The position numbers and the translations under genes were made by a program. Under the pieces are notes generated by a model that ran no database searches, was not told where the DNA came from, and saw only the letters and a list, made by a program, of their open reading frames with translations. Below are positions 4,436-49,833 of a stretch of DNA of 64,000 bases, one piece after another (position 1 is the stretch's first letter; each line of letters opens with the position of its first letter). Origin of the DNA: a virus (taxonomy: Duplodnaviria; Caudoviricetes). The DNA lies in the IMG/VR virus record IMGVR_UViG_3300021431_000076, positions 96,001 to 160,000 of that record. One strand, written 5' to 3'.

Positions 4436-4467
4436 AGTTATAATATATAAACAATAAAAAATACTTT

Positions 4468-4499
4468 AACACCACTAGGGATTTCTCCCTAGTGGTGTT
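4468..4499 (-). terminator. Terminator with GAAA tetraloop
   Basis: 14-bp perfect stem; the GGGA-GAAA-TCCC core recurs near 53755 and 55292. Confidence 0.8.
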
Positions 4500-4502
4500 T
4501 GT

Positions 4503-5150
4503 TTATTTTCTCATCATGGCTAATATATCATCAATTCCATTTAATTTCATAAATCTATGCTTAGTATTACCATAGCTATTTTCACATAATACTTGGCAAT
4601 CTTTGATACGATCAGAATCAAATGTAAAATATACTAAATAGAAATGTGATTTATCTATATAAAGTTTATGGTAAGTAGTACAATTACCGTATGGGTCAAA
4701 ACTACTATTACTTGCAGCTTTTTTATGTAAAGAATCTTGTCCTCTTGTTTTGGTTTCATATTCTACATCATAAGAATAAGTAGAACTAGAAGAGGCATAA
4801 TTAGTATTAGAATTATTCTTACCATAACCAGGATTGTTATATGTGTTACTAACTGTCTGTTTATGTTTATTAACAGTCTCAGAATTAAATAAAGAATCAA
4901 GTTTATAATTATCTAAAACAACAGCTTCTTTAGTTCTAGAACGAATAACCTGAATAAGTCTTTTTCTAGCAGTTTCATTTAAAGTATAAAACTTTCTGAA
5001 ATACTGCAACTTCTTCTGATACTTATCTCCTTCAGTAAATGCTGCTTTAATCTGAGCCCATGTTGTAGACCAATTTTCATTTAAAGGTCTTCCTGTATCT
5101 ACTACAGCTTCTGTTAAAGTATATTGTCCATCAATTAATAAATAGCCCAA
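4503..5150 (-). CDS. Hypothetical late protein, possibly an internal head protein
   Basis: TTG start with SD AGAAAGGA; N-terminal LTEA/LNE motifs. Confidence 0.6.
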   Translation of the reverse strand: MGYLLIDGQYTLTEAVVDTGRPLNENWSTTWAQIKAAFTEGDKYQKKLQYFRKFYTLNETARKRLIQVIRSRTKEAVVLDNYKLDSLFNSETVNKHKQTVSNTYNNPGYGKNNSNTNYASSSSTYSYDVEYETKTRGQDSLHKKAASNSSFDPYGNCTTYHKLYIDKSHFYLVYFTFDSDRIKDCQVLCENSYGNTKHRFMKLNGIDDILAMMRK

Positions 5151-5174
5151 CTTTTTCTCATCCTTTCTAATTAA

Positions 5175-5588
5175 TTATCTATTTTCTTTTACCATTTTAG
5201 TAATATGAGAATTTATATAATAAAAAGCAGATTTTGTTTCATATATTTTAGAATTTGAATTTAGATTCTTATTTCCTTCTACAAGATATATAGTAACATC
5301 TACTTTATTTAAATAATCATACAGATCCTTAGAGATTTGTATTGGAGATGATTGCCAAGTGTAAAAATGGCATCCTTGTGGAACGTTATCATGTTTCTTA
5401 CTAAATAAATTAGACCAGAATTTATCATACCAATCTTGTATAGCTCCACGAATTGTCAAAGATTTAGTAGATTGAATCTTTTTGTTAATCAAGAAACCAT
5501 TTTTCTTCTGCTCTTCTGAAACTGCAACGTATCTAGATCCGCTGGTAAGATTTCCTAAAAATCCTTCATTCATGAATAAATATGCCAA
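5175..5588 (-). CDS. Hypothetical late protein
   Basis: TTG start 2 nt after the upstream stop; N-terminal MNEG motif. Confidence 0.6.
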   Translation of the reverse strand: MAYLFMNEGFLGNLTSGSRYVAVSEEQKKNGFLINKKIQSTKSLTIRGAIQDWYDKFWSNLFSKKHDNVPQGCHFYTWQSSPIQISKDLYDYLNKVDVTIYLVEGNKNLNSNSKIYETKSAFYYINSHITKMVKENR

Positions 5589-5590
5589 AA

Positions 5591-6376
5591 TTACACCTTC
5601 TTCTGTTCTTCTTTAATCTTATTTAAGAATTGATCTTTATCTTCTAGAGTATATTGTTCCGATACGATTCCTCTATCCATCTCATTTATTTTAGTTGAGA
5701 GTGTTTCTTGCAATTCTTGAATGTTTGGGAACTCATATGCTCCAGAAGGATCTATATAAACAGGGCTTACTTCAAGTATTCTACATTGAGATTTATAGTC
5801 ATAGACTTCAGATACTTTTTCAGCCTTGATAAGTATATTTTTTAAATCTGGATCCATATACATACCATATAGTTCAACAAACCTCTTATACATTCCATAT
5901 ACTCTAGTAGTAGGAATGAATAATTGACCTCTATGAACTATAGCATGTACTGTTTCAGATAATGGAATTAATCCAACCATTAAATTATAATGACACCACA
6001 TCACTTCTTTAGCAACCATCAATTCAGATATTGGTTCTCTATTCAATAATCTCTTAGCATATACTGTAGTTACTATATCATATAATGTTAATGGAGTGTG
6101 GTGAATATGAATCTTGATAGAGTAAGTATCTATATTATTTACGTTCTTGTAAAAGGAACATTTATTCATATCAACATGCTCTCTTAAGAAGTCTATTAAC
6201 TTCTTATAAGAACGAGAATTTCTACATATTCTTTCAATTGACTTGAAATAAGCAGTCAATTCTTTAGGATTAGACAAATCATAATCTTCTATATCAAACT
6301 CAGGGAGAGATTTAATGACAATAGATTCTTTCTTCTCTGGCAATTCTATTTCTGCATATTCTCTCATTATATTCAT
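5591..6376 (-). CDS. Hypothetical protein with HNH-like motif
   Basis: C...IHIHH...NLMVGLIPLSETVHAIVH pattern; SD AGAAAGGAG; late motif at 6406-6418. Confidence 0.55.
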   Translation of the reverse strand: MNIMREYAEIELPEKKESIVIKSLPEFDIEDYDLSNPKELTAYFKSIERICRNSRSYKKLIDFLREHVDMNKCSFYKNVNNIDTYSIKIHIHHTPLTLYDIVTTVYAKRLLNREPISELMVAKEVMWCHYNLMVGLIPLSETVHAIVHRGQLFIPTTRVYGMYKRFVELYGMYMDPDLKNILIKAEKVSEVYDYKSQCRILEVSPVYIDPSGAYEFPNIQELQETLSTKINEMDRGIVSEQYTLEDKDQFLNKIKEEQKKV

Positions 6377-31898: not shown

Positions 31899-32378
31899 AT
31901 GGCTGCTCCGTCTATTACAGTTGTTAATGCTTCTTCAAATACAACCCAGACTAACTGGTCTGCTGGTGTTGTTAAAGCTAGTCAGAGTTCCAATGTTTTA
32001 ACTATTCAGATTTGGAATAATAGAGGTAATAACTCTACTGCTCTAGCTGATCTTAGAGATGCTTCTATTACATCTCTAGACACTAATGGTGGTAGCACTT
32101 CTGATCCAGTATCAGGTAAATGGCTAAAAGTAAACTGCCCAAATCTTTCTGAACAATCAGGTACTTGGACTGCTGTTGGTGGTACTACTACTAAATTTAT
32201 TCGTGGTGATGGTGTACCAGCATCAGATGGTAATATTATTAGAGGTACTGCTAATCCTGGTTCTTCTAGTAATACAACTAATTATTGCACAGTAAAACTA
32301 AGAATTGATGTTCCTGCAAATGCTACACCTAATACATATAACTTTAAGACCAGAATTAATGGTTACTATGTTGGTTAA
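31899..32378 (+). CDS. Small beta-rich structural subunit, candidate major fibre subunit
   Basis: Own late promoter, SD AAGGAGGT, S/T/N/G-rich composition; paralogue of 32393 and 20678. Confidence 0.7.
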   Translation: MAAPSITVVNASSNTTQTNWSAGVVKASQSSNVLTIQIWNNRGNNSTALADLRDASITSLDTNGGSTSDPVSGKWLKVNCPNLSEQSGTWTAVGGTTTKFIRGDGVPASDGNIIRGTANPGSSSNTTNYCTVKLRIDVPANATPNTYNFKTRINGYYVG

Positions 32379-32392
32379 TGGAGGTGACTTAA

Positions 32393-32863
32393 ATGGGTCC
32401 ATTAATCGGAATTTTTGATGAAACCAACACAGCTGTTCAAGCAACATGGAATGTTGGAATTGTCAGAGCTCAAATTCCATCTGAAGAATTGACTATTAAT
32501 ATTTGGAATAATAAAACTGGTACTGATGATGTGTCTGATCTTAGAGATCCTATGTTAGCAGTATTAGATTCTAATGGTCTAACAGCAAATACTCCAATTC
32601 CACAAGATAAATGGGTACAGGTTAATGTAGAATCAGTTGATGGTAATACAACTACTTGGACTCCTATTGGTGGTACTACTACTAAATTACTAAGAGCTAA
32701 TAGTGGTGTAATTACAGATGTTATTAAAGGTACTATGAACAATGGTGATCCCTTACTATATCCACAAAATGTATGTACTGCTAAATTAAGAATTGTTGCT
32801 CCAATCAATTCTATTCCTGGAGATTTTACATTTAAAATTAGACTTACTGGTTATTATACCTAA
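32393..32863 (+). CDS. Small beta-rich structural subunit, paralogue
   Basis: Aligns end to end with 31899 (IWNN, DLRD, KW..VN, GGTTTK, FK.R..GYY). Confidence 0.75.
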   Translation: MGPLIGIFDETNTAVQATWNVGIVRAQIPSEELTINIWNNKTGTDDVSDLRDPMLAVLDSNGLTANTPIPQDKWVQVNVESVDGNTTTWTPIGGTTTKLLRANSGVITDVIKGTMNNGDPLLYPQNVCTAKLRIVAPINSIPGDFTFKIRLTGYYT

Positions 32864-33649: not shown

Positions 33650-33963
33650 ATAAAAGAGAGGTTTGAGTGGATAGATATAAATTTTGTATACCAGAACCTC
33701 TCTTAACTATTTATCTCCTCCATTTCTTGACAAAGTTTGTCTCTCAAATAATTATCAATAGTCCAGCTTATAGTGCTATCCACAATACTATGAGGATCTA
33801 TTGATACCTGAAACAACACCAACCCCTTCTCCACTATATTATGCTGGGAAATTTCGTTATGCACTACCTTATTATATGTAGCATTAAACAAAGTGTTTGT
33901 GGTCCTATGACGAATATACAACTTTTATTCTCATATGAACTTCCCCTTTATCTATCCACTCAT
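33650..33963 (-). other. Early transcription unit with 5'-3' complementarity and a frame-disrupted ORF
   Basis: Promoter at 33968-33975; 14-nt inverted repeat 33664-33677/33949-33962; the SD-led ATG 33934 gives only 9 aa and is out of frame with the 72-aa ORF 33703-33921. Confidence 0.45.
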
Positions 33964-34036
33964 ATAAATAGTATATGTTTATAATTTATTTTACTCAAAT
34001 ATATCCCTGATGGTATCAAACCATCAGGGAGGATTA

Positions 34037-34372
34037 TTATTTATCATATATTTTAATCAAACCCATCTTAGTAACTATACAATGTAAAGTTTTCTTACAA
34101 TTTAAATTTTTATTAGTTTCTATAGTAATCTTATTACCATTAACAGAACAACAACAAACATATCTAGGATATTCCTGTTCAAGATTAACCGTAAAGTTTC
34201 CTTCATGATCTTTAAACGAAATTATCTCTTTAGTAAACGTAGTATTTGATTTAGAGTCATATCTAATTAAAGTAATATGCAATGTATCTTTTTCTTCTAT
34301 AACTTTATACAGATAGATATATAATGCTGATACTACACCAGCAGCTATCATTAGTACAACGATGTCAGTCAT
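34037..34372 (-). CDS. Membrane-anchored hypothetical protein
   Basis: N-terminal TM helix; ATGA overlap with the upstream gene. Confidence 0.7.
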   Translation of the reverse strand: MTDIVVLMIAAGVVSALYIYLYKVIEEKDTLHITLIRYDSKSNTTFTKEIISFKDHEGNFTVNLEQEYPRYVCCCSVNGNKITIETNKNLNCKKTLHCIVTKMGLIKIYDK

Positions 34373-34773
34373 TTTATCATCTCCTCACAATAGCCATCTT
34401 CAGTTGTATAAAATATTTTCTTAATTCCAGCTTTTTTGATTACTTCCATACATGCAGGACAAGGTCTACATGGTGCTAATTTTCCTCTTTTATCTTCTCG
34501 ATACACATAAATACATGCTCCAGATAAGTCTTCTTTATCTGCATTTATTATAGCTCGCATTTCAGCATGAAGATAATGATGATATTCAGGTTGACAATTG
34601 AATCTAAGAGAGTTATATTTCTTTTGCATAGGATGAGATTTTTTGACATTGACTCCTGCTGATAAGATTTCTTTCTTATAAACTATAATACATCCAATCT
34701 TTATACGATCAAATGTAGAAGTCTTTGAAACTGCTTTAGCAATCTTGAAATAATGGAAATCTCTTTTAACCAT
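34369..34773 (-). CDS. Zn-dependent CMP/dCMP deaminase family protein
   Basis: HAE and PCPAC motifs; SD AAGGGAGG favours ATG 34773. Confidence 0.85.
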   Translation of the reverse strand: MVKRDFHYFKIAKAVSKTSTFDRIKIGCIIVYKKEILSAGVNVKKSHPMQKKYNSLRFNCQPEYHHYLHAEMRAIINADKEDLSGACIYVYREDKRGKLAPCRPCPACMEVIKKAGIKKIFYTTEDGYCEEMIK

Positions 34774-34854
34774 AATAATACCTCCCTTATAGGAAAGTAT
34801 CCTATGGTTTAAAAAAATATCCAGGATCAATAAAGATCCTGGATATCCTTGTTA

Positions 34855-35025
34855 TTAAACTTTGGATCTAAGAATTTCAAGTACACGAGCATATTGAGCT
34901 TCATCAATTTCTTCACCCATTTGCTCTACTTGTTGAAGCATAGCTTGCAACTGTCTCTGCTTTTCAGCAGTAGACATTAGAAAACCTTCTTTGATTGTAC
35001 GAATGACTATATCTTTGCTAATCAT
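34855..35025 (-). CDS. Small helical protein (56 aa, MISKDIVIRTIKEG...)
   Basis: Below ORF-track cutoff; SD AGGAGGT; fills the operon gap. Confidence 0.7.
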   Translation of the reverse strand: MISKDIVIRTIKEGFLMSTAEKQRQLQAMLQQVEQMGEEIDEAQYARVLEILRSKV

Positions 35026-35059
35026 TGTTAAATACCTCCTAAATTGTATTATTTAACTG

Positions 35060-35497
35060 TTAAAGATATCTAACCCTAGAACCATCATCAAGGTGTTTAA
35101 CTTTAATAGAATCTGGTTCTATCATAGTCATTCCAACAGTAGTAGCTTTCTTATTTTCTTTAATGGTATCATTTACGTTCATCATCAGATTATGACCTAA
35201 CCATGCTCCTACAATACAAGCAATAATAAACAATACACAAAAACCAACCTTAGATTTATGAAAGATTATAAATTCTTTAGCTTGATCTAATCTATTTCTA
35301 AGAGTTAGTTTTCTATTTGGATTTTCAACAACACTAACTAGATTATTTCCAGCAGCTTGTAATTGTTCTATAACTCTATCTTCTTTTTCTGTACGAAATT
35401 TAAACTGTACAGGTTTGTCTTTAAGACAAGTAAAGTAGAATACAGTACTAAGAACACCAAGAGCAACAGATAAAACCACAATCAAAATCATTTCCAT
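35060..35497 (-). CDS. Membrane protein with two TM helices
   Basis: Two hydrophobic segments; SD AAAGGGG. Confidence 0.7.
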   Translation of the reverse strand: MEMILIVVLSVALGVLSTVFYFTCLKDKPVQFKFRTEKEDRVIEQLQAAGNNLVSVVENPNRKLTLRNRLDQAKEFIIFHKSKVGFCVLFIIACIVGAWLGHNLMMNVNDTIKENKKATTVGMTMIEPDSIKVKHLDDGSRVRYL

Positions 35498-35519
35498 TTT
35501 CTAAAAATCCCCTTTTGAA

Positions 35520-36065
35520 TTATTTACCAGTAGAACCTATACCACCGGTTCTTACCCCTTTTGCATTATCATCTTCCATAGTGAAGTATCTCTGTATAAT
35601 TCCTTGACAGAATTTGCTACCAGCAGGAAGTTTGAGAGGAACACCAACTCTAAATGCTATTAGAATGTGTCCTTCATTGTCACTATTGTTGTAATAGTCA
35701 GCATCAATAATAGGTATAGTATTTGGCATACTAAATCTATATCCAAATCCAAGAGAAGATCTAGGATATAATGCTAAGAATACTTTACCAGCTAATTTTA
35801 CATCAATAGCATTACTAGCTTCTGGTCTTACTAAATCATCCATATTAGCCTTAATACCAGATGGAAGAACTATAGTCTTATCTGCAGGAACATCAATATC
35901 AAATGGCAGTTTAAAATCATACCCAGCTGATTTTGATGTAGATCTTTCAGGTTTTGCGATATACTTATAATTCAACTCATCTGTTCTTGGTAAATACTCT
36001 GTCCCCTCATAATTAAGAGTATTAAACTTCAACCAAGTTTCCAAACTAATCTTTTCAAAAGCCAT
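35520..36065 (-). CDS. dut: Trimeric dUTPase
   Basis: SAGYDF, PRSS, IIDADYY, QGII and RTGGIGSTG motifs. Confidence 0.92.
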   Translation of the reverse strand: MAFEKISLETWLKFNTLNYEGTEYLPRTDELNYKYIAKPERSTSKSAGYDFKLPFDIDVPADKTIVLPSGIKANMDDLVRPEASNAIDVKLAGKVFLALYPRSSLGFGYRFSMPNTIPIIDADYYNNSDNEGHILIAFRVGVPLKLPAGSKFCQGIIQRYFTMEDDNAKGVRTGGIGSTGK

Positions 36066-36160
36066 TTCTTATACCTCCATTTTACAAAATGATAGCTCTG
36101 AACACTACTAGAGTGTTCAGAGCATTGTATAAAGAAATGTTTAGTTATGAAAATCAAGTT

Positions 36161-36235
36161 TGGCCCGCCTACCAAGAATCGAACTTGGATTAAAGGTTTA
36201 GAAGACCCTTGTACTATCCATTATACTATAGGCGG
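36161..36235 (-). tRNA. tRNA-Arg(UCU)
   Basis: Cloverleaf: acceptor CCGCCTA/TAGGCGG, anticodon loop CTTCTAA, T-loop TTCGATT, discriminator G, encoded CCA; late motif at 36247-36259. Confidence 0.95.
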
Positions 36236-36276
36236 AATCTTTTAGACTAATATATTGTTAGTGTGTTTGTAATTTA

Positions 36277-37878
36277 TTATTCATTTATTTTAGAATAACA
36301 CATCACACCAAAGATGATAGTAAATGTTCTAACCATTATATCAATTTCTGGTTCAAATCTTAGATGATATGTTTTCTTTTTGAATTCATATTGTTTTTGA
36401 ATTTGTTCCTTGATATCATCCAAGATATATAAACAATCTACATTAAATTTATCTAATCCTAATGGTATCTTTGGATTATTATATTCTTCATTAGGATAGT
36501 AATATTGAATTTCACCTACCTCTGTTGGACTAAATATTGATTCTGTACTTAGTTTAAGCATATCTTTTCTAGATATTCTCATACCAGCAGCACCTGGATG
36601 ACCTTGACCTAAACCAAATGTACCAAATACATTATTAATACCAACATCCTTTATTATTTGATCTGATGTATATCCAGATGCAGATAATATAGCTGGTTTA
36701 TTAGTATACCGTATTAATAATGTAATTTCGTAATCATACTCAGATTGATCATGTCTTTCCACAAATCTAGAACTATTTCCAGTACCATATATAGCTCTAA
36801 TAGTTAAAGTCTTTCCATTTTCATATTGTATAGTATACTTATACACATAATCAAATTTATACAATAACTTTAACTTCTTTAAATTAAGATCCCATAATAA
36901 CTTACCAGCTACCATCATTCTAGTGATAGACTCTATCTGATATTCTTCCATGAAAGAATCTTTCCAGAATTTGGTGAATACATATACTGTTTGATAATCC
37001 CAGTAATACTGATTCATATATAGAGCTTTTTGATATGATTCTGGAAATCTTTCATCCATTTTCATGTCATATATACTAATCAATGCTGCTATTTTATAAC
37101 CAGTTATGTGCTTAGTCTCTTTAATACGTTTTATGTATGGATGTAACCATAATAAGGCTAATTGAGTGGCTGACATTCTGGTATCTAATACATAAGAGAA
37201 ATCACTAGTAACCGAGTTAGTTTTCATTGACTTTATAAAGTCACCAGACTCTAACTCATTGACAACTGGAATAGATCCAGCATGGTGATCTATCCAAACT
37301 ACTTTATTAAACGTACTTAACAACATAGTCATATACAGAATCTTTGGAGATAGGTCAACTATGAATAAAACAAATTTCTTTTCTGGATTATTGGCTTTTG
37401 CTACATTTACATCTAAGATTAATTGATCTAATACATCATATTCATAATTGAAACGTGTAATATTTACATTATCTCCAAAATGCAATGAGTTAAATACTAA
37501 ACTACCAGATGCATCTCCATCCATATCTGTATGGCATAACATATATACCACACATTCTTTAGATCTTATAGCAGTTATATCACTATCTAACAGTATACCT
37601 TCTTTGTTATATGAGTATTGAGCTATATGATTAGAAGTTTTCTTACTATCAAATATTCTCACAATATTAGAATTAGTAAGATTAGAATTCTTTCTAGTTA
37701 CATAGGTTTCATCAAAACCCATATAACCATTTAGTTTCTTTGGATATTTATCATTCTCTGAAATAACTAGATCGTTTATTGAGTTATAGAACAATTTGTT
37801 TTGTTCTTCTGATGAGAATATAGCAAATTCTCCATTATCTAGCTCAGACAACATTTGATCTATGTCTACATCAATCAC
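36277..37878 (-). CDS. DHH/DHHA1 family phosphoesterase
   Basis: HTDMDG, VDLS, IDHH and GQGHPGAAG motifs. Confidence 0.85.
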   Translation of the reverse strand: MIDVDIDQMLSELDNGEFAIFSSEEQNKLFYNSINDLVISENDKYPKKLNGYMGFDETYVTRKNSNLTNSNIVRIFDSKKTSNHIAQYSYNKEGILLDSDITAIRSKECVVYMLCHTDMDGDASGSLVFNSLHFGDNVNITRFNYEYDVLDQLILDVNVAKANNPEKKFVLFIVDLSPKILYMTMLLSTFNKVVWIDHHAGSIPVVNELESGDFIKSMKTNSVTSDFSYVLDTRMSATQLALLWLHPYIKRIKETKHITGYKIAALISIYDMKMDERFPESYQKALYMNQYYWDYQTVYVFTKFWKDSFMEEYQIESITRMMVAGKLLWDLNLKKLKLLYKFDYVYKYTIQYENGKTLTIRAIYGTGNSSRFVERHDQSEYDYEITLLIRYTNKPAILSASGYTSDQIIKDVGINNVFGTFGLGQGHPGAAGMRISRKDMLKLSTESIFSPTEVGEIQYYYPNEEYNNPKIPLGLDKFNVDCLYILDDIKEQIQKQYEFKKKTYHLRFEPEIDIMVRTFTIIFGVMCYSKINE

Positions 37879-38213
37879 AGATAGTCACTCCTTCTTAAAG
37901 ATTCATTCATTTCATTTGCTTCTTCTTGAGTTATTACTCCGTTAGCTTCAAAATAAACTACTTGTTTTTTCGGTTTTACTTTAGTGTATCTCTCTGCTTC
38001 AGACTTTATTCCAGTCATATCTATATTAGCATGAATAGGAAAGTTCCTAACTCTAGTATCCACACTAATAAAATTAGGAATGTTTAATAACATTTGAGAT
38101 GCTGTTCTCTTCAACTCCTTTTCTGGTTGAGTGCATAATCTTCCTATAGTATCAATGGTATTACCAATAGGTGTCTGTTTGAATGCATCCCATAAGATGT
38201 TTCCAAAGTTCAT
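37875..38213 (-). CDS. Hypothetical early protein
   Basis: SD AAGGAGGAG; early motif at 38244-38251. Confidence 0.7.
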   Translation of the reverse strand: MNFGNILWDAFKQTPIGNTIDTIGRLCTQPEKELKRTASQMLLNIPNFISVDTRVRNFPIHANIDMTGIKSEAERYTKVKPKKQVVYFEANGVITQEEANEMNESLRRSDYL

Positions 38214-38298
38214 AATATCTCCTCCTTAAATAAATACATAGTAATAGTATATCATTATTCAAAAATTTAAAGGAGTACCATTTCTGGTACTCCTGTTT

Positions 38299-40665
38299 TT
38301 AGAATTCATATTGTGATATGTCTACACCTTTTAACAAGCTGTATTTATCATCATTGACTTTTCTCATCATCTCTATTTCTTTAGCAATATCTTGAGTAGT
38401 ATATCTCAATAGTTTTCTATGAGCTGGATCAAGAGTGGAGATACCTAATTCTCTTGGATTTAATTCACCTAACCCTTTTGCTCGTTCCATATTCTTTGGT
38501 TCGGCATTTCTTATTTCATGAGTTAATTCATATAATCCTACCTTTTTGCCATTCATTAAATATCTCTTTTCAGACGCATCAATATATGATAACAGTGGGG
38601 TTACATCATTCATGAATTGCTCTGTTAATATAACTGACTGAATACCAGATTCTCCATTATCTGCTAAGCCATTCAGGATAGTAACTCCCTTCTTCTGAGA
38701 TACTTCAAGATATGGATACTTCTTATTGAAATTCTGCTTCATCTTACTGAAACTTAATCCTCTAGAGATTAGAATATCTTCTAACAATATTGGATTGATT
38801 GCTTTGTTATAAGCTATATGTTCCATAAGTCTATCATAATCTTTATATTTATTCATAAATGAACTAAACTCACTAGAAGAGAATTTTTTCTTTGTTCTTA
38901 AATGGCACAACTCATGTTTGGATAAGAAATCTTTTCTAACGTAATCTATTACTGCATCCATATCTATAAAATACTTCCAATTTTTTGTTCCCATATCCAC
39001 ATGATATAATGGAGATAATGCAGTATACACTCTTCCTGCCTCTATTAATGGACGGCAATATATTAATAAGAATTTTAATACAAGTGTACGAATGTGGGCT
39101 CCATCGCTATCTCCGTCAGGGAGAATAATGACCTTCTGGAATGGACATTTAGAAATATCAAAATTCTTTCCATAACCAGATCCTAATATAGATAGAATAC
39201 CTTTAACTTCTTCATTAGCTAAAAATTTTTCTCTACTAGTAGAGAATGCATTAGGCATTTTACCACGTATAGCATATATAGCTTGATATTTAGCATTTCT
39301 TGAAGTTTCACATGGAGAAGATGCTGAAAGACCTTCAACTATAAACAATTCGAGATTATCTTTATTCTCTGCCTTTACATATCCCTTTGGTAACTTAGTA
39401 AAATCACCATTATTATACTTCTTTGCTACATTAGCTCTTTCTTTATCTGCACGAGATCTTGCTAATGCTACATCTTTTAAGAATGCACATACTTTTTGAA
39501 GATCATCTGGATTTTGTTTAGACCATTGTTTTAATGCTTCTACTACTACATCATGCATGAATGGTTCTAAATCTTCATTCTTACATACATTCTTTGCTTG
39601 ACCGTCGAACATTACTTCCATATGACAAGCAGATACTGCTGCTACTAGTCCAGTAGTAACATCTCCATTTGTTGCTTCTAGTTTAGATCTAGTGGTTGCT
39701 AGATATATCTTGTTCATATAGTTCTTAAAGAAGTCTTGTACTCCTCTCATGAATCCTTTAGATGGAGTAGATTCTATTGTATTTACTGGAGTCATATTAG
39801 CAAAAGTAATTACATTAGCACTAGCATTTATATCCTGAGTGAATATCATTGCTATATCTGCTTTCATTACTCCAGTATCTTGGAATATCATAATAGGTTT
39901 AATCATTGGTTTCTTAGTCATTCTCATAAGATATGTAAGAGTACCATCTACATTAGTAAGCTCTTTATGAATAACCAATTCTTTTCCATTTGGTTTTGGT
40001 TTATGACCAATGAAGTCTATCTTAGCACCTTGTTTAAGAAGAGGAACCAAATTCTCTAAGAACATCAATACATCTTCACATCTTATGGTTATATTACCCA
40101 TAATAGAGAAGTCTGGAACAAATCTTACTATGGTTCCATGATCTTGAGATTTATTAGGTCTCTTCTCAGGACCTTTCTTATATTTAGGAAGAGGTTTACC
40201 TTCAGAGAACTCTATAAAACCAGTAACAAATCCATCTTTCTTATTATAGGTATATGACTCTACCTCAAACTTAGATGATACTGCATTAGTACATTTAGCA
40301 CCAACACCATGTAACCCTGAAGGATAATTTCCTTTCTCTTTAGTATAGTTGGTTGATGTATGTTCTCTAGAGAAGATTCTAACCAAATCATCTACAGGAC
40401 ATCCTCGACCATTATCTCTTACTATACATCCTCTAGTTCTCTCATCATATTCAACCCATACTTCTGTAGCAAACCCTCTCTGAATTTCATCAGTACCATT
40501 TTGAATTACTTCTCGAATACCATTCATCCATCCTTCATTTCCTATAGAGGATAGATACTCACCTGGATTTTGTCTTACTGAATCTACAAATAGTTCAATG
40601 GTTTTGATTCCCTTAGTATAGGAATCCATATTATTTAGAAATTCTTTAGATATCTCCTTTTTCAA
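38299..40665 (-). CDS. gyrB: Type IIA topoisomerase B subunit (GyrB/ParE-like)
   Basis: GHKL motifs EVIQNGTDE, DNGRG and GLHGVG; TOPRIM motifs IVEGLSA, RGK, DGDSDG and KGLGE; TTG start. Gyrase versus Topo IV type is not resolved. Confidence 0.92.
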   Translation of the reverse strand: MKKEISKEFLNNMDSYTKGIKTIELFVDSVRQNPGEYLSSIGNEGWMNGIREVIQNGTDEIQRGFATEVWVEYDERTRGCIVRDNGRGCPVDDLVRIFSREHTSTNYTKEKGNYPSGLHGVGAKCTNAVSSKFEVESYTYNKKDGFVTGFIEFSEGKPLPKYKKGPEKRPNKSQDHGTIVRFVPDFSIMGNITIRCEDVLMFLENLVPLLKQGAKIDFIGHKPKPNGKELVIHKELTNVDGTLTYLMRMTKKPMIKPIMIFQDTGVMKADIAMIFTQDINASANVITFANMTPVNTIESTPSKGFMRGVQDFFKNYMNKIYLATTRSKLEATNGDVTTGLVAAVSACHMEVMFDGQAKNVCKNEDLEPFMHDVVVEALKQWSKQNPDDLQKVCAFLKDVALARSRADKERANVAKKYNNGDFTKLPKGYVKAENKDNLELFIVEGLSASSPCETSRNAKYQAIYAIRGKMPNAFSTSREKFLANEEVKGILSILGSGYGKNFDISKCPFQKVIILPDGDSDGAHIRTLVLKFLLIYCRPLIEAGRVYTALSPLYHVDMGTKNWKYFIDMDAVIDYVRKDFLSKHELCHLRTKKKFSSSEFSSFMNKYKDYDRLMEHIAYNKAINPILLEDILISRGLSFSKMKQNFNKKYPYLEVSQKKGVTILNGLADNGESGIQSVILTEQFMNDVTPLLSYIDASEKRYLMNGKKVGLYELTHEIRNAEPKNMERAKGLGELNPRELGISTLDPAHRKLLRYTTQDIAKEIEMMRKVNDDKYSLLKGVDISQYEF

Positions 40666-40816
40666 AACTATTCTCCTTTCTTTAGTCAGAATAACTGAGT
40701 CACCAAGATGTTTATCTGTGTTTTAAAATTTTAAAAAAGAATCACAGAGAGGAATAAATCCTCTCTGTGATAAATACTTGATTCAGATAATGATTAATAA
40801 CGTTAATGAGATTTAC

Positions 40817-41842
40817 TTAGTTTTTTGCAGGTTCCTGCAGATTCGGATTCTTCGGTGCTTCAGGCATCGGAGGAGTCTGAGTATTAGCTACAGAAGGACC
40901 AGGCATAGCTACATTCTGTACAGTCTGAGCTTGCTGAGGCTGCTGTACTACACTGGTAAAATCAGGCTGAACAGTCTGATTCTGTTCTACATAGCCAATG
41001 GGATTAGTACCCATCTGAGCTACACCACCAAGACCATAGGTCTGACCAGCAGGAGCAGTATTAGCTACAGGCTGTTGATTGGGTTGAGGTACATACACGC
41101 CATTCTGCTGTACATACTGAGGCTGATTGAACTGACCCATAGCAGGAGCAGCATATACAGGCTGTTGGTTAGCCGCAAAATACGGATTTACACCACCAGT
41201 CTGAATACCATTGAACATATTGAAATTACCACCCATGCCACCAAGCAGTGCACCAAGAGCACCAAAGGCATTATCAGCACCATACTGCTGGTTTGGATTG
41301 AGCTGATAATAATTGGAAGAGTTTTCGAAATACTTCTTTGCAACCTTCCAAAGCTGAGGTACTTTACCAATAAGACCAGCAATGATATAGATCTCTTTGA
41401 GAGCCAGAGGTACATTGCCATAATAAGTCTTAATGGACTGGAAGAGGTCAAGGAAGTCACCACAAATACGCTCTACTTCTTCATCAGTCGTGTTAAGATC
41501 AAGCAGATTCCACTCTGCACCACAGATATTGCACTTTACACGACCAGTGCCATCTTTTGTTTCTTCAATGGAATAATGACCTTGAGTATCTTTATGAGTA
41601 CAAATAGCGCGAAGATATTCTTCACGAGTTAACCGACCCTGGAAACCTACAGGCTGTTTCTGCAATTCTGCAATCTGTTCTGCAGACAAGAACTGCACAT
41701 TTTGAGATTCAGGAGTTACTACTTGTGCAGGTTGTACAACAGGATTCATCATGGGATTATAAATGGGATTAAACCCACCCATAACTTGTGCCTGCTGAGG
41801 CTGTTGAACTACCGGATTTGGACCAAAGTTGTTGTTAAACAT
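40817..41842 (-). CDS. Q/N/P/G-rich low-complexity protein with central Zn-ribbon-like domain
   Basis: CTH...CNIC motif; low-complexity termini; GC above genome background; own early promoter and terminator. Confidence 0.8.
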   Translation of the reverse strand: MFNNNFGPNPVVQQPQQAQVMGGFNPIYNPMMNPVVQPAQVVTPESQNVQFLSAEQIAELQKQPVGFQGRLTREEYLRAICTHKDTQGHYSIEETKDGTGRVKCNICGAEWNLLDLNTTDEEVERICGDFLDLFQSIKTYYGNVPLALKEIYIIAGLIGKVPQLWKVAKKYFENSSNYYQLNPNQQYGADNAFGALGALLGGMGGNFNMFNGIQTGGVNPYFAANQQPVYAAPAMGQFNQPQYVQQNGVYVPQPNQQPVANTAPAGQTYGLGGVAQMGTNPIGYVEQNQTVQPDFTSVVQQPQQAQTVQNVAMPGPSVANTQTPPMPEAPKNPNLQEPAKN

Positions 41843-41876
41843 AAAAAATTACCTCCATATGATAATTGATTATTAA

Positions 41877-41908
41877 ATCTGGGTATCCGCTTACGCGAAT
41901 ATCCAGAT
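41877..41908 (-). promoter_or_regulatory. 5' leader hairpin of the 41842 mRNA
   Basis: AUCUGGAUAUUCGC-GUAA-GCGGAUACCCAGAU with a GNRA loop, close to the predicted +1. Confidence 0.6.
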
Positions 41909-42044
41909 CTTCACTATAATAGTATATAACTGAAATTTCGAACCCTCTGCAAAATATGTATATTTTGTAGAGCTTCCTTTGGGTTCGAAATTCCAGTGAC
42001 CTAAGTAGGTTACACCTTAGTCTAACCTGTTGTAAATTATAATT

Positions 42045-42608
42045 TTAGAATGCCATTGGATGAACAGTGCTGTTGTATTCATGAATATCCTGATAGTGTC
42101 TGGTTGCCGGATCCTTGCGCTTATCAGTCATAGTCATGTAAGATCTATTTCTTGCTTTTGGAATCTGAATTGCATTATCAGTATCAATATACAGCATTTT
42201 CTTAATAGCAGCTTTCTGAGGATCTGTCATGCCAATAGCATTAGCAAAATTCTCATATGCTTCTTCTGTAAGCTGTACTCTGATATTCTGAATCTCTCCA
42301 TAGTCTACACAAATACATGCACCTGCAATAGTTGGTTTGTTACCAAATGACATTGCTGGAGATGCACCATGGAAAGTAGCATCAGTATTATATACAAATG
42401 CATAGAATACCTCGTTACTATCATCCCAGAAAACTGTGGGATTGTTTGGATTATAGATAACATTTAGAGAGTTATCACAGACTATATGAATCAAAGACTT
42501 AACTGTCTTTGTTGCGTCTGCTGGTGCACAATTCTTATCCTTATTATAAAGGGTAAATGTAGCTTGTTCACATTTCTGTCTTAATAATTGTACGGTAGCT
42601 GTTTCCAT
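42045..42608 (-). CDS. Hypothetical protein
   Basis: SD AAGGAGG; late motif at 42650-42662. Confidence 0.75.
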   Translation of the reverse strand: METATVQLLRQKCEQATFTLYNKDKNCAPADATKTVKSLIHIVCDNSLNVIYNPNNPTVFWDDSNEVFYAFVYNTDATFHGASPAMSFGNKPTIAGACICVDYGEIQNIRVQLTEEAYENFANAIGMTDPQKAAIKKMLYIDTDNAIQIPKARNRSYMTMTDKRKDPATRHYQDIHEYNSTVHPMAF

Positions 42609-42684
42609 AAATTAAAATCCTCCTTAAGAATGAGAGTATTCATAAATGATTATTAAACTGTTTATGAGATACTCTCTTATTCTA

Positions 42685-43224
42685 TCAAAGGATTAAATTC
42701 TTTGCACCCTTCATAAATGGATTTCCATTAAGCTGAATAGATATAGTGACTAAGAACTGAGGATTGCACATCTCAGGATGTATAAATCCATCAGGACCCA
42801 TACCAGAATCTCTATATTTTACTATACCTTCCATTATAGTGGAATATGCTATATATTTAAGCTCAGCTTTTTGCATAACAGATCCAAATACAGGATTTGC
42901 TAATATAGGTCTAGTATCAGGATCTTGTGGTCTATTAGCAGCAAATCTTAATGCATCTCTACATGCTAAAGTTTCTAATACTTTATTTTGAAGATCATTT
43001 ATAGCTTCTTGAACTATTCTAGGATCTCCTATAAAATATTGATAATACTTATTCTGCTGAAGATTACCAAATGCTAAATCTAAGTATAATACTTTTAACT
43101 TAGCCTGTATATCAGCAGTAGATGCTTTAGCAGTACATGTAGGGCCATTAGCACTTAGAAAGTGCTCAAAGAATTTACTAGGTCTGAGTTTCTTGTTTAA
43201 TGTAGAAGCTTTTAGTGCTCTCAT
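42685..43224 (-). CDS. Hypothetical protein
   Basis: Coupled to the upstream ORF by a 1-nt gap. Confidence 0.75.
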   Translation of the reverse strand: MRALKASTLNKKLRPSKFFEHFLSANGPTCTAKASTADIQAKLKVLYLDLAFGNLQQNKYYQYFIGDPRIVQEAINDLQNKVLETLACRDALRFAANRPQDPDTRPILANPVFGSVMQKAELKYIAYSTIMEGIVKYRDSGMGPDGFIHPEMCNPQFLVTISIQLNGNPFMKGAKNLIL

Positions 43225-43225
43225 T

Positions 43226-43657
43226 TTACTTTACCCCTTTATTGATTTCTTTGTTATACAACAGATTCAAATCCAAATCAGGATAGAGGTCAGAAGCATA
43301 TGCATCCAAATCATCTACTGTGAAATTGGTATGAACTTTACCACTTTCAATACAGTGTCTCATAAAGCTATATACACTAACTTCTTCACCAAGATGGATA
43401 TGACCAGTCATAACATAAGAATTGACAATATCAATTCCCATACATTCTCCTTCAAGATATCCAAATGCTCCATCTCTCCCTCTTATAGATATCCAACGAC
43501 CTTCATGACAATCATCATCTCCAGGATTGTCTACATCAGTCATTAAGATAAGATATGGTTTAGATTCAATCATATCAATATCTTCAAACTGATTAGTGTT
43601 CGGATTGATGAACTGAACAACAGATTTGAAAGCTTCGACAGGTTTGTGTAATGGCAT
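43226..43657 (-). CDS. Hypothetical acidic protein
   Basis: SD GGGAGG; early motif at 43746-43753; structured leader. Confidence 0.75.
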   Translation of the reverse strand: MPLHKPVEAFKSVVQFINPNTNQFEDIDMIESKPYLILMTDVDNPGDDDCHEGRWISIRGRDGAFGYLEGECMGIDIVNSYVMTGHIHLGEEVSVYSFMRHCIESGKVHTNFTVDDLDAYASDLYPDLDLNLLYNKEINKGVK

Positions 43658-43801
43658 GGTAATTCCTCCCTAATAATAAAAAACATTTAATTTACCATGA
43701 GTTTAATAGTGATGAGCATTAGCTCATCACTAATCACTCATATGTATAGTATATGTCTAAATTTTAGTTTACTTTTACAAATAACAGTACTAATATATAA
43801 T

Positions 43802-43926
43802 GAAGAATAGGGTTGCCTCCATTAATACGGTTTGCTCATCCGTGGTCATATCCTTTCTGATAATTGATTGTTATACATGCGTCTATTTTCCTATTCTTCT
43901 CCCATAGGTCATGGATGGCCTATGGG
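43802..43926 (+). ncRNA. Candidate trans-acting sRNA with two anti-RBS seeds
   Basis: Late-type motif at 43788-43800; closing stem GAAGAAUAGG/CCUAUUCUUC; seeds contain CCUCC and UCCUUUC; 3' hairpin 43901-43926 has a G-U pair that forms only on the plus strand. Confidence 0.55.
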
Positions 43927-43938
43927 ATACTCATTGTC

Positions 43939-45198
43939 TTATACAGATCTACCATTGATAGATACTACAGATTTAAGAATAGGAACTTGTATACCAAGAG
44001 AAGGAATAACATAGATGCACTTCTGTCTGAATCTAGTAATGCCTGTATAGTTCAATCTTCTATTTACATCATATCCACCACCAAAGTATTCTTGGAAATA
44101 GATTCCATTGAAATACTGACTACCCTGAGAGATATGAGTAGTTATAGCATAGCCAAATTCAAACTTCTCTCCATCTGGTCTATATAGAGCATTACCAAAC
44201 TCTTTCATACATTTTCTAGTCTTATTATCAGCTACGAAATATGGATAGTCACATTCTATATTTCTAAATGTAAGAGAAGGAAACAAGTCTGGTATAAAGT
44301 CCATCTTAAATAGACCTTTCTTAGTAAATGTAGCTATACTAGGCATACTGGCAACTACACCAGATAATCCATTGGTTAGATTTACTCCTTCTAATTCAAT
44401 ATCCCAGTTATTCTTTCTACATATTACTCTTTCTCCTAGCTCAGGTAAGATACCATGTTTTCCTAGAATATCTTTTCTGATATGAAAGTTATAATAATCT
44501 CTGGTCTTATTCAATCCACAGATTATGATTCTATACTTAGGGATTATATGATTCTCATACTTCTCAAACATATCTCTAGGTAAGACTATCACATCATTAA
44601 AATCTCCAGGAGGTATATCCTCACCATGTAGAATTCTTTGAGAGAATTCTACTATGGCAGAATATTGTGCTTGTCTCATTATCTTAGTGAGATAATGTAT
44701 CTTAGAAGGATCTGTAAGAAATAACTCTTTATCCTTTACTGGAGGAAGCTGATTTAGATCTCCACAGACTAATACTTTTATACCAGTTCTAAATATATCA
44801 TTACCCATATGAAAAGGAACCATAGATCCTTCATCAATACAGATCAGTTTGATTACATCACTATTCAAACCAGTATAGATATATCTAAGTCTTTTTCTAC
44901 TTTCTCCAGTATATGGATCAGTTACAGTTTCTTCTATTGGTGTATAGAGAGATGAATGGATAGTTCTAGCATTTACAAAACCATTTATCTTCATAACAGT
45001 TGTAGCAGAACCTGTATATGCCATAGCAGCATATTCCCATTCATCTAACCCTAATGCATCTATGATAGCATGCATAACCAAAGACTTACCAGCACCAGCA
45101 GGACCACTATATTCAAATACTTGATCACTGCTATTATAGAACCATGAGACAGCATCTTTTATGATATTCTGTTGTTCATCAGTAAGTTCTATATTCAT
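43939..45198 (-). CDS. SF1B helicase (Dda/RecD-like)
   Basis: GPAGAGKS, IDEGSM, GDLNQLPPV, YAITTHISQGS and YTGITR motifs. Confidence 0.9.
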   Translation of the reverse strand: MNIELTDEQQNIIKDAVSWFYNSSDQVFEYSGPAGAGKSLVMHAIIDALGLDEWEYAAMAYTGSATTVMKINGFVNARTIHSSLYTPIEETVTDPYTGESRKRLRYIYTGLNSDVIKLICIDEGSMVPFHMGNDIFRTGIKVLVCGDLNQLPPVKDKELFLTDPSKIHYLTKIMRQAQYSAIVEFSQRILHGEDIPPGDFNDVIVLPRDMFEKYENHIIPKYRIIICGLNKTRDYYNFHIRKDILGKHGILPELGERVICRKNNWDIELEGVNLTNGLSGVVASMPSIATFTKKGLFKMDFIPDLFPSLTFRNIECDYPYFVADNKTRKCMKEFGNALYRPDGEKFEFGYAITTHISQGSQYFNGIYFQEYFGGGYDVNRRLNYTGITRFRQKCIYVIPSLGIQVPILKSVVSINGRSV

Positions 45199-45752
45199 TT
45201 ATTATTTGCCTCAAACCATTCTTTCTCAAATACGTCATACTGATTTAGTACATCATCTATCATTTTATCAGTCATAGATTCTAGTCTCATAAAAGCTTCA
45301 AGATACTTAGTAGAATCCTTATAATGATTCTTAGTAACTATTCTAGCTCCATTACCATAAAGAATAGCTATATATCCATATGTATCTGTTCTAGGAATCT
45401 CTGTAGTAGAAGCTGCAAAGATTTGTGTAGCTACTATCTCTGGATGTACTTCTTCTACATATTTCTTAAATAACTCTTCCATAATGATTGGATTATTGTA
45501 TGGGTCAAATACTAAATCATTAGAATGGACTATACCCATATTAGTATATCTCAATACCTTTCCTTTAATCATTATATAGTCAGGTTCTAATGGATTATCT
45601 TCTGTATCTACTATATATCCTTCAGAATCATACTCTAATCCAGTTATTCTAAGTACATCATTAATGAAACTATCTGATAACTCAGGATTAGTGCATAGCT
45701 TAGATTTAATGTTAGTAAGGGATTGGATTTTGGGTTTCTTTTGTCTTGGCAT
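45195..45752 (-). CDS. Hypothetical protein
   Basis: SD AGGAGGAG; early motif at 45780-45787. Confidence 0.75.
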   Translation of the reverse strand: MPRQKKPKIQSLTNIKSKLCTNPELSDSFINDVLRITGLEYDSEGYIVDTEDNPLEPDYIMIKGKVLRYTNMGIVHSNDLVFDPYNNPIIMEELFKKYVEEVHPEIVATQIFAASTTEIPRTDTYGYIAILYGNGARIVTKNHYKDSTKYLEAFMRLESMTDKMIDDVLNQYDVFEKEWFEANNK

Positions 45753-49776: not shown

Positions 49777-49833
49777 GTTGACTCCTCCTTATCTATCATT
49801 ATAATAGTATATGTCTAAAAATCATATTAGAGA

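Follow-up and report, generated by a model that had tools for sequence, protein, structure and literature searches.

What kind of element occupies the 281-nt gap (positions 43658–43938) between two minus-strand genes of an uncultivated AR9-like jumbo phage, and from which strand does it act? The phage genome is a 332,775-bp IMG/VR record with 31% G+C, and the window, the 64,000-nt stretch analyzed here, comprises its bases 96001 to 160000. The original prediction for this gap was a multi-target small RNA (sRNA), expressed late from the plus strand, that pairs with ribosome-binding sites (RBSs) through two seeds, shuts off an early gene, and sets subunit stoichiometry. To our knowledge, the regulatory RNAs of virulent phages, especially of jumbo phages with their own RNA polymerases, are almost uncharted. 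Base-pairing sRNAs of Gram-positive bacteria, among them RsaE/RoxS and the hairpins of RNAIII, use C/U-rich motifs directed against the Shine–Dalgarno (SD) sequence. For the phage phiKZ, a 75-nt sRNA was predicted and a Northern blot did not confirm it; such RNAs are expected late in infection (PMC8244752).

We find that the gap holds a 125-base folded, non-coding intergenic module that is conserved, structured, discrete, and under selection. The single most likely explanation of this module, which we advance tentatively, is a base-pairing plus-strand sRNA; the module is thus presented as a well-delimited candidate sRNA, not a demonstrated one.

A folded module between a helicase gene and an early promoter

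Every gene from ~33,700 to 45,750 lies on the minus strand, and helicase, topoisomerase, and DnaB-like genes are among those around the module. A tRNA-Arg(TCT) gene at 36161–36235 (minus strand) is also located inside this early/replication gene block. The features of the locus are listed here, with the module-carrying lineages denoted as groups A to D (defined in the next section).

43226–43657, minus strand: gene for a 143-aa protein of no known family
43739–43776, minus strand: early promoter of the 143-aa gene, TATACTAT-N6-G (core 43753–43739) with an upstream GTAAAC; it bounds the module and is not part of it
43788–43800, plus strand: TACT-N6-TAA, putative AR9-type late promoter; predicted start A43799, 3 nt before P1
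43802–43812, plus strand: P1 5′ arm, GAAGAATAGG plus G43812, from folding; invariant in relatives
43812–43826, plus strand: seed 1 block, GUUGCCUCCAUU(AAU), containing the anti-SD CCUCC; kept in groups A and C only
43827–43843, plus strand: P2, a small hairpin from folding, ACGG / loop UUUGCUCAU / CCGU
43851–43873, plus strand: seed 2, a CU-rich tract and the 12-mer UGAUAAUUGAUU (43858–43869); 12-mer invariant in groups A, B, and C
43874–43889, plus strand: variable linker, which holds most of the indels among relatives
43890–43899, plus strand: P1 3′ arm, CCTATTCTTC, from folding; invariant in relatives
43900–43927, plus strand: H1 hairpin from folding, stem CCCAUAGG/CCUAUGGG followed by U-G and C-G pairs
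43939–45198, minus strand: Dda/RecD-like helicase gene, whose best named relatives are in the Bacillus phages AR9 and PBS1 (33% identity)

Folding recovered each structural element that had been proposed. The 10-bp closing stem is present as P1 (43802–43811 with 43890–43899), and on the plus strand a G43812–U43889 wobble forms an eleventh pair. The small ACGG/CCGU hairpin and the two single-stranded segments that it separates were found where they had been placed, and the 11-bp 3′ hairpin corresponds to the core of H1 (43901–43926; 11 pairs on the plus strand), to which a T43900–A43927 pair is added. The P2 stem has 5 to 6 pairs on the plus strand, by way of G-U pairs, and 3 to 4 on the minus strand; its loop block UUGCUCAU is conserved, and the stem is absent from groups B and D. 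The 12-mer is mostly unpaired in the consensus fold. Both strands of the module fold better than shuffled sequences, with z scores of −2.5 (plus strand) and −2.9 (minus strand). The two strands differ little in consensus-structure energy (−28.9 versus −27.2 kcal/mol, respectively), a point against assigning the module to the plus strand.

An Rfam covariance-model search with the module returned no match, either at the gathering threshold or at E values up to 10. A covariance model built from the module itself found one copy per genome, plus one gene-end hairpin in the sister genome. Paralogues of the module within the genome were rejected on this result, the extra match being an unrelated hairpin.

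The module is a lineage-specific insertion

Relatives were recovered by searches with neighboring proteins and by DNA pattern searches. A near DNA match was not found in the phage database search, and the IMG/VR search yielded a single close relative. Ten of the 12 matches from a metagenome pattern scan were due to chance, and the remainder were members of groups already known. Group A consists of the window, the sister genome L006 (also L028; = G001), and L017, with L006 and L017 each ~92% identical to the window. Group B is L009; group C comprises L010, L011, L027, and L030; and group D comprises L014, L015, and L016. In L009, an extra 415-aa gene (4449–5696) lies between the 144-aa and 179-aa genes, and the window does not have this gene.

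The arms of P1 and the stem of H1 are invariant in all four module-carrying lineages. Over the same comparisons, the neighboring 143-aa protein of group A is 57 to 71% identical to those of groups B, C, and D, with third-codon-position identities of 0.60, 0.49, and 0.41, respectively. Over the whole element, groups A and C share 84% identity. Lineages differ in the H1 loop, in the linkers, and in interior length, with 76 to ~140 nt separating the two P1 arms; the module measures ~125 nt here and 125 to 190 nt in relatives. In group D, the inner G-C pair of P1 has changed to A-T in a compensatory manner, and two outer A-T pairs have been gained. The seed 1 block is missing in groups B and D.

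Outgroup genomes with helicases 60 to 65% identical (L031–L033, L037, and L038) have a gap of just 70 to 97 nt at this position. The module is absent from these gaps, in which the early promoter and RBS alone are present. Because distant relatives have only this short gap, the module is, by sequence comparison, a lineage-specific insertion of ~170 nt under purifying selection. That P1 and H1 are invariant despite divergence of the neighboring gene, and that distant relatives are without the module, mark it as discrete, selected, and single-copy.

Transcription signals at the module

In AR9, the early promoter consensus is AAATATATATTAT-N6-G and the late consensus is AACA-N6-T[A/G], with the last base at +1; seven of the late promoters of AR9 drive antisense RNAs (PMC5312081). 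Late transcription in AR9 is abolished by substitution at any of positions −11 to −8 (PMC5449584). The present phage uses the same two promoter types, in the forms TATAYTAT-N6-G (early) and A/C/G-ACA-N6-TA (late); examples of AR9-like promoters lie at 43739–43776, 41900–41940, and 49780–49830, all on the minus strand. The early-type motif TATA(C/T)TAT-N6-G occurs at 52 sense-orientation sites in the genome (G000), often with TTGTAAAA/GTAAAC and TTTCA upstream and often followed by a 5′ stem-loop. The late-type motif is enriched 4- to 7-fold in the sense orientation upstream of genes, and this enrichment is specific to the N6 spacing. Position −11 is accordingly relaxed here relative to the AACA of AR9, since the enriched form accepts A, C, or G.

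The stem-loops of early transcripts are an observation in their own right. A stable 5′ stem-loop follows within a few bases of the predicted +1 at 43710–43729 and ~41880–41915 (both minus strand) and in L031, L033, and L037; the stem sequence differs by gene and lineage, and the hairpin is always there.

The plus-strand late-type promoter claimed for the module fared poorly against these statistics. Its site reads TACT-AATATA-TA-A, which does not match the AACA of AR9 late promoters at −11 to −8. It shares with them the central A-C, the N6 spacing, and the TA but differs at −11 (T) and −8 (T), both of which are essential in AR9. Neither TACT-N6-TA nor TACA-N6-TA is enriched upstream of genes genome-wide; for TACT-N6-TA, 12 sense and 16 antisense sites compare with 10.5 expected. 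With a position weight matrix (PWM), the candidate scores 0.07 bits, compared with 3.4 to 15.7 bits for the training sites, and ~1.3% of genome positions (about one in 80) reach that score. By the phage's own statistics, the TACT variant is therefore not a credible late promoter. A TAC(T/A)-N6-TAA motif is nevertheless kept 0 to 3 nt before P1 in all four lineages, and its group D form (TACA) scores 6.6 bits.

Other promoters near the module were also considered. No early-type promoter was found beside P1 on either strand, where PWM scores are far below those of real sites. A sigma-70-type sequence, TTTACA-16-TATAAT (11 of 12 positions), was rejected: it is confined to group A, its predicted start falls inside P1, its −35 element is the reverse complement of the upstream element of the neighboring early promoter, and ~27 such sites occur genome-wide. 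On the minus strand at 43861–43872, group A carries a perfect strict late motif (AACA-ATCAAT-TA) that overlaps the conserved 12-mer; it is not conserved, groups B and C having AAAT and AATA there, respectively.

Strand-specific features of the fold

Only 12 nt separate the helicase stop codon from H1, and no terminator lies between them, so that the minus strand across the module must be transcribed in any case, as the 3′ UTR of the helicase mRNA. The element may thus act from the minus strand, as part of this 3′ UTR or of read-through transcripts, a reading that we consider somewhat unlikely. It calls for no separate promoter, the minus strand being transcribed whenever the helicase gene is, and P1 and H1 fold there too, with the z score of −2.9 given above. 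In this orientation, stacking of H1 on P1 (~22 bp together) could serve RNA processing or stabilization.

Several positions in the stems differ in pairing between the two strands. Position 9 of the H1 stem is a U-G pair on the plus strand in groups A, C, and D and a U-A pair in group B, whereas on the minus strand the same position becomes a C-A mismatch in groups A, C, and D. The C-G pair next to it is invariant, although the loop varies. In P2, position 4 changes from A-U to G-U and position 5 is U-G on the plus strand; both are mismatches on the minus strand. The minimum free energy is 3 to 8 kcal/mol lower on the plus strand than on the minus strand in eight of eight variants. That conserved stem positions turn into C-A mismatches argues against a minus-strand RNA.

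The sequence following H1 bears on both strands. H1 resembles the phage's own intrinsic terminators in its GC-based hairpin, and many gene-end hairpins are similar, but the other terminators of this phage consist of a hairpin and a T-run, and H1 has no T-run on either side in the window. A search for terminator-like sites (hairpin plus U-tract) across 43200–44300 found none, in agreement with the original caveat that no U-tract follows the 3′ hairpin. Of 9 nt in the plus-strand tail of H1, 4 are T in the window and 5 to 6 in groups B to D. The minus-strand tail, which is the invariant P1 arm, is purine-rich (1 T of 9) and unusual among 142 gene-end hairpins; an invariant purine run in this place, unlike the terminators of the genome, also weighs against the minus-strand reading. 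Taken together, the strand-specific clues lean, though not strongly, toward a plus-strand RNA.

Elsewhere in these phages, an H1-like gene-end hairpin at 1514–1542 of L041 (G001 ~212873–212901) has CCCCTAGG where H1 has CCCATAGG and is flanked on either side by a T-rich tail, and CCCTAGGG-like stems are common to many terminators.

Complementarity of the two seeds to predicted targets

The predicted target of seed 2 is the leader of an early gene on the minus strand.

40817–41842, minus strand: early gene for a 341-aa protein that is widespread across the jumbo-phage family
41860–41875, minus strand: leader of the 341-aa gene, with AAUCAAUUAUCA just upstream of GGAGG

The 16 contiguous pairs claimed between seed 2 and this leader are present at 41860–41875. 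The complementarity claimed for seed 1, with the start region of the gene at 32393, is present as well, at a length of 17 contiguous pairs (32374–32390) rather than 15. The latter gene (32393–32863, plus strand) and the one preceding it (31899–32378, plus strand), 14 nt apart, are a paralogue pair of PHROG 11814 (function unknown), and the SD of the second overlaps the stop region of the first.

By contiguous pairing, the 32393 site and the 341-aa leader rank 1 and 2 among 319 start regions. Control sequences frequently do as well. Among 200 dinucleotide shuffles of the RNA, 21 equaled the top score and 4 the second; among 200 random natural 125-nt windows, the corresponding numbers were 33 and 10. 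The predicted targets thus do not outrank controls, which equal the best match in 10 to 16% of trials and the second best in 2 to 5%. Folding of full-length duplexes gave long, meaningless interior loops. By hybridization energies on the two unpaired segments, the 32393 site ranks 2 and the 341-aa leader ranks 6; energies as good were reached by 7 of 60 shuffles for the former and by 18 of 54 for the latter.

The proposed target of seed 1 is not supported, the block being missing in two of four lineages and its pairing not exceeding controls, and nothing was found in support of a role in setting subunit stoichiometry. The sister genome has an additional site (G001 85035–85043, minus strand) with GGAGGCAAC, which complements seed 1 exactly; this additional "target" is missing from the present genome, where the sequence has no further copy, which shows that such "targets" come and go easily. 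The RBS of the 143-aa gene was rejected as a conserved target, as a cross-lineage matrix gave no diagonal signal.

Seed 2 differs from seed 1 in its conservation. Its 12-mer, read on the minus strand as AATCAATTATCA, has three copies in the genome: in the element, in the leader of the 341-aa gene, and at one coding site. Outside group A, the leader was read in one module-carrying lineage, group B (L009), where the 12-mer is also kept, next to an anti-SD/SD pair. It is absent from the 341-aa leaders of the module-less outgroups L031, L033, and L037. In groups A and B, the 12-mer stands at both sites without any variation; because it never varies, covariation with the target cannot decide between readings. 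Moreover, antisense pairing by a plus-strand RNA and a shared site for an RNA- or DNA-binding protein fit equally well, because both copies of the 12-mer lie on the same strand.

This second possibility gives the minus-strand reading a regulatory form. The interior AAUCAAUUAUCA and SD-like tract could duplicate an operator that a phage RNA-binding translational repressor would also recognize in the leader of the 341-aa gene. Control of the T4 RegA or gp32 type is a precedent for translational repression of this kind. In groups A and B, element and leader both carry the 12-mer with a purine-rich tract behind it, and in the same orientation; against this reading, the outgroups do without the element, and no candidate binding protein was identified.

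The product of the 341-aa gene offers few clues to function. It contains an invariant C81-x-H83 ... C104-x2-C107 motif, and its structural model has a folded, confident core at approximately residues 51 to 176 with long Q/N/P/G-rich termini of low confidence. Sequence searches of Pfam, PHROG, and PDB gave no match, and fold matches were generic helical hairpins only.

Of the multi-target sRNA first proposed, then, the conserved and structured module, the lean toward the plus strand, and the retention of seed 2 stand; the promoter, seed 1, and the superiority of the pairing over controls are not supported.

DNA-level, cis-acting, and coding explanations

The inverted repeats may instead function in the DNA, as a cruciform or single-stranded-DNA signal (e.g., for priming or for the loading of a protein) or as binding targets of a DNA-binding protein, which we regard as improbable. 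Each arm of P1 and H1 is conserved in its very sequence and not just in its complementarity, as would suit sequence-specific recognition, and the location among helicase, topoisomerase, and DnaB-like genes would be apt. However, the P1 arms lie anywhere between 76 and ~140 nt apart, the element is single copy and iterons or other repeats were not found, and a DNA-level signal leaves the wobble-type substitutions unexplained. Cumulative GC skew has no turning point at the module, and an origin of replication at this site was rejected for want of that signal.

A plus-strand RNA could also act in cis only, as an antisense to read-through helicase transcripts or as a terminator or insulator against antisense transcription, with no targets in trans. 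The same strand clues that favor a base-pairing sRNA apply here, and the statistically unremarkable trans targets would be expected; yet such an RNA faces the same promoter problem and leaves unexplained why invariant interior blocks stand amid freely varying linkers. We consider it distinctly improbable.

It is very improbable that a micro-protein (MTTDEQTVLMEATLFFIIY and its relatives) is encoded by these blocks on the minus strand. In favor of coding, groups A, B, and C share an open ..DEQ..LFF.. frame, all three space the GATGAGCAA and CTATTCTTC blocks by a multiple of three, and the window, group B, and group C have an ATG in frame. Coding does not explain the conservation, however: the ATG is lost in L006, displaced in L017, and just 0 to 1 nt from the SD-like purine tract before it; groups A and C use different frames for the conserved block AATGGAGGCAAC; and no ORF of this kind exists in group D. 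The intervening residues are not conserved either, so that the translated micro-ORF named in the original prediction as its possible refutation is not borne out by start codon, SD spacing, or amino-acid conservation.

Discussion

We return to the base-pairing plus-strand sRNA as the preferred explanation. The module would be a self-contained, non-coding unit of ~125 nt, an insertion that separates the helicase stop codon from the early promoter of the 143-aa gene, and would be expressed as a small plus-strand RNA that is antisense in orientation to all neighboring genes. The 5′ and 3′ parts of this RNA would pair to form P1, of 10 to 12 bp, followed directly by the stable terminal hairpin H1. 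Between the arms of P1, it would expose largely unpaired conserved blocks, namely the CU-rich tract and the 12-mer and, in some lineages, GCCUCCAU. The 12-mer and CU tract may pair with the leader and SD sequence of the 341-aa gene and thereby lower its translation. Transcription of the plus strand, the ends and timing of the RNA, and its effect on the target are what we infer from the sequence. A more specific version, in which a dedicated phage sRNA gene is transcribed by a phage RNA polymerase from a non-consensus promoter and uses a 12-nt seed and an anti-SD to repress the conserved early gene of a Zn-ribbon protein, is in our judgment unlikely.

Such an RNA would resemble RsaE/RoxS- and RNAIII-type sRNAs in being short and structured, in directing pyrimidine tracts against GGAGG-type RBSs, in having several candidate targets, and in its terminal hairpin. 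It differs from them in lacking a canonical promoter, a U-tract terminator, and an Rfam match, in that its seeds are not all conserved, and in that its target scores do not rise above controls. Like the 75-nt candidate of phiKZ, it is a putative small RNA from a jumbo phage with RNA polymerases of its own; the present candidate rests on conservation.

If the more specific version above is true, a phage with a transcription system of its own would have a trans-acting sRNA of defined function. The module provides a concrete, testable candidate for a phage regulatory RNA, being compact, conserved, and single-copy and containing a conserved 12-nt block that matches the leader of one early gene. 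Even if it turns out to work from the minus strand or at the DNA level, the replication gene cluster of these phages would contain a control element specific to their lineage.
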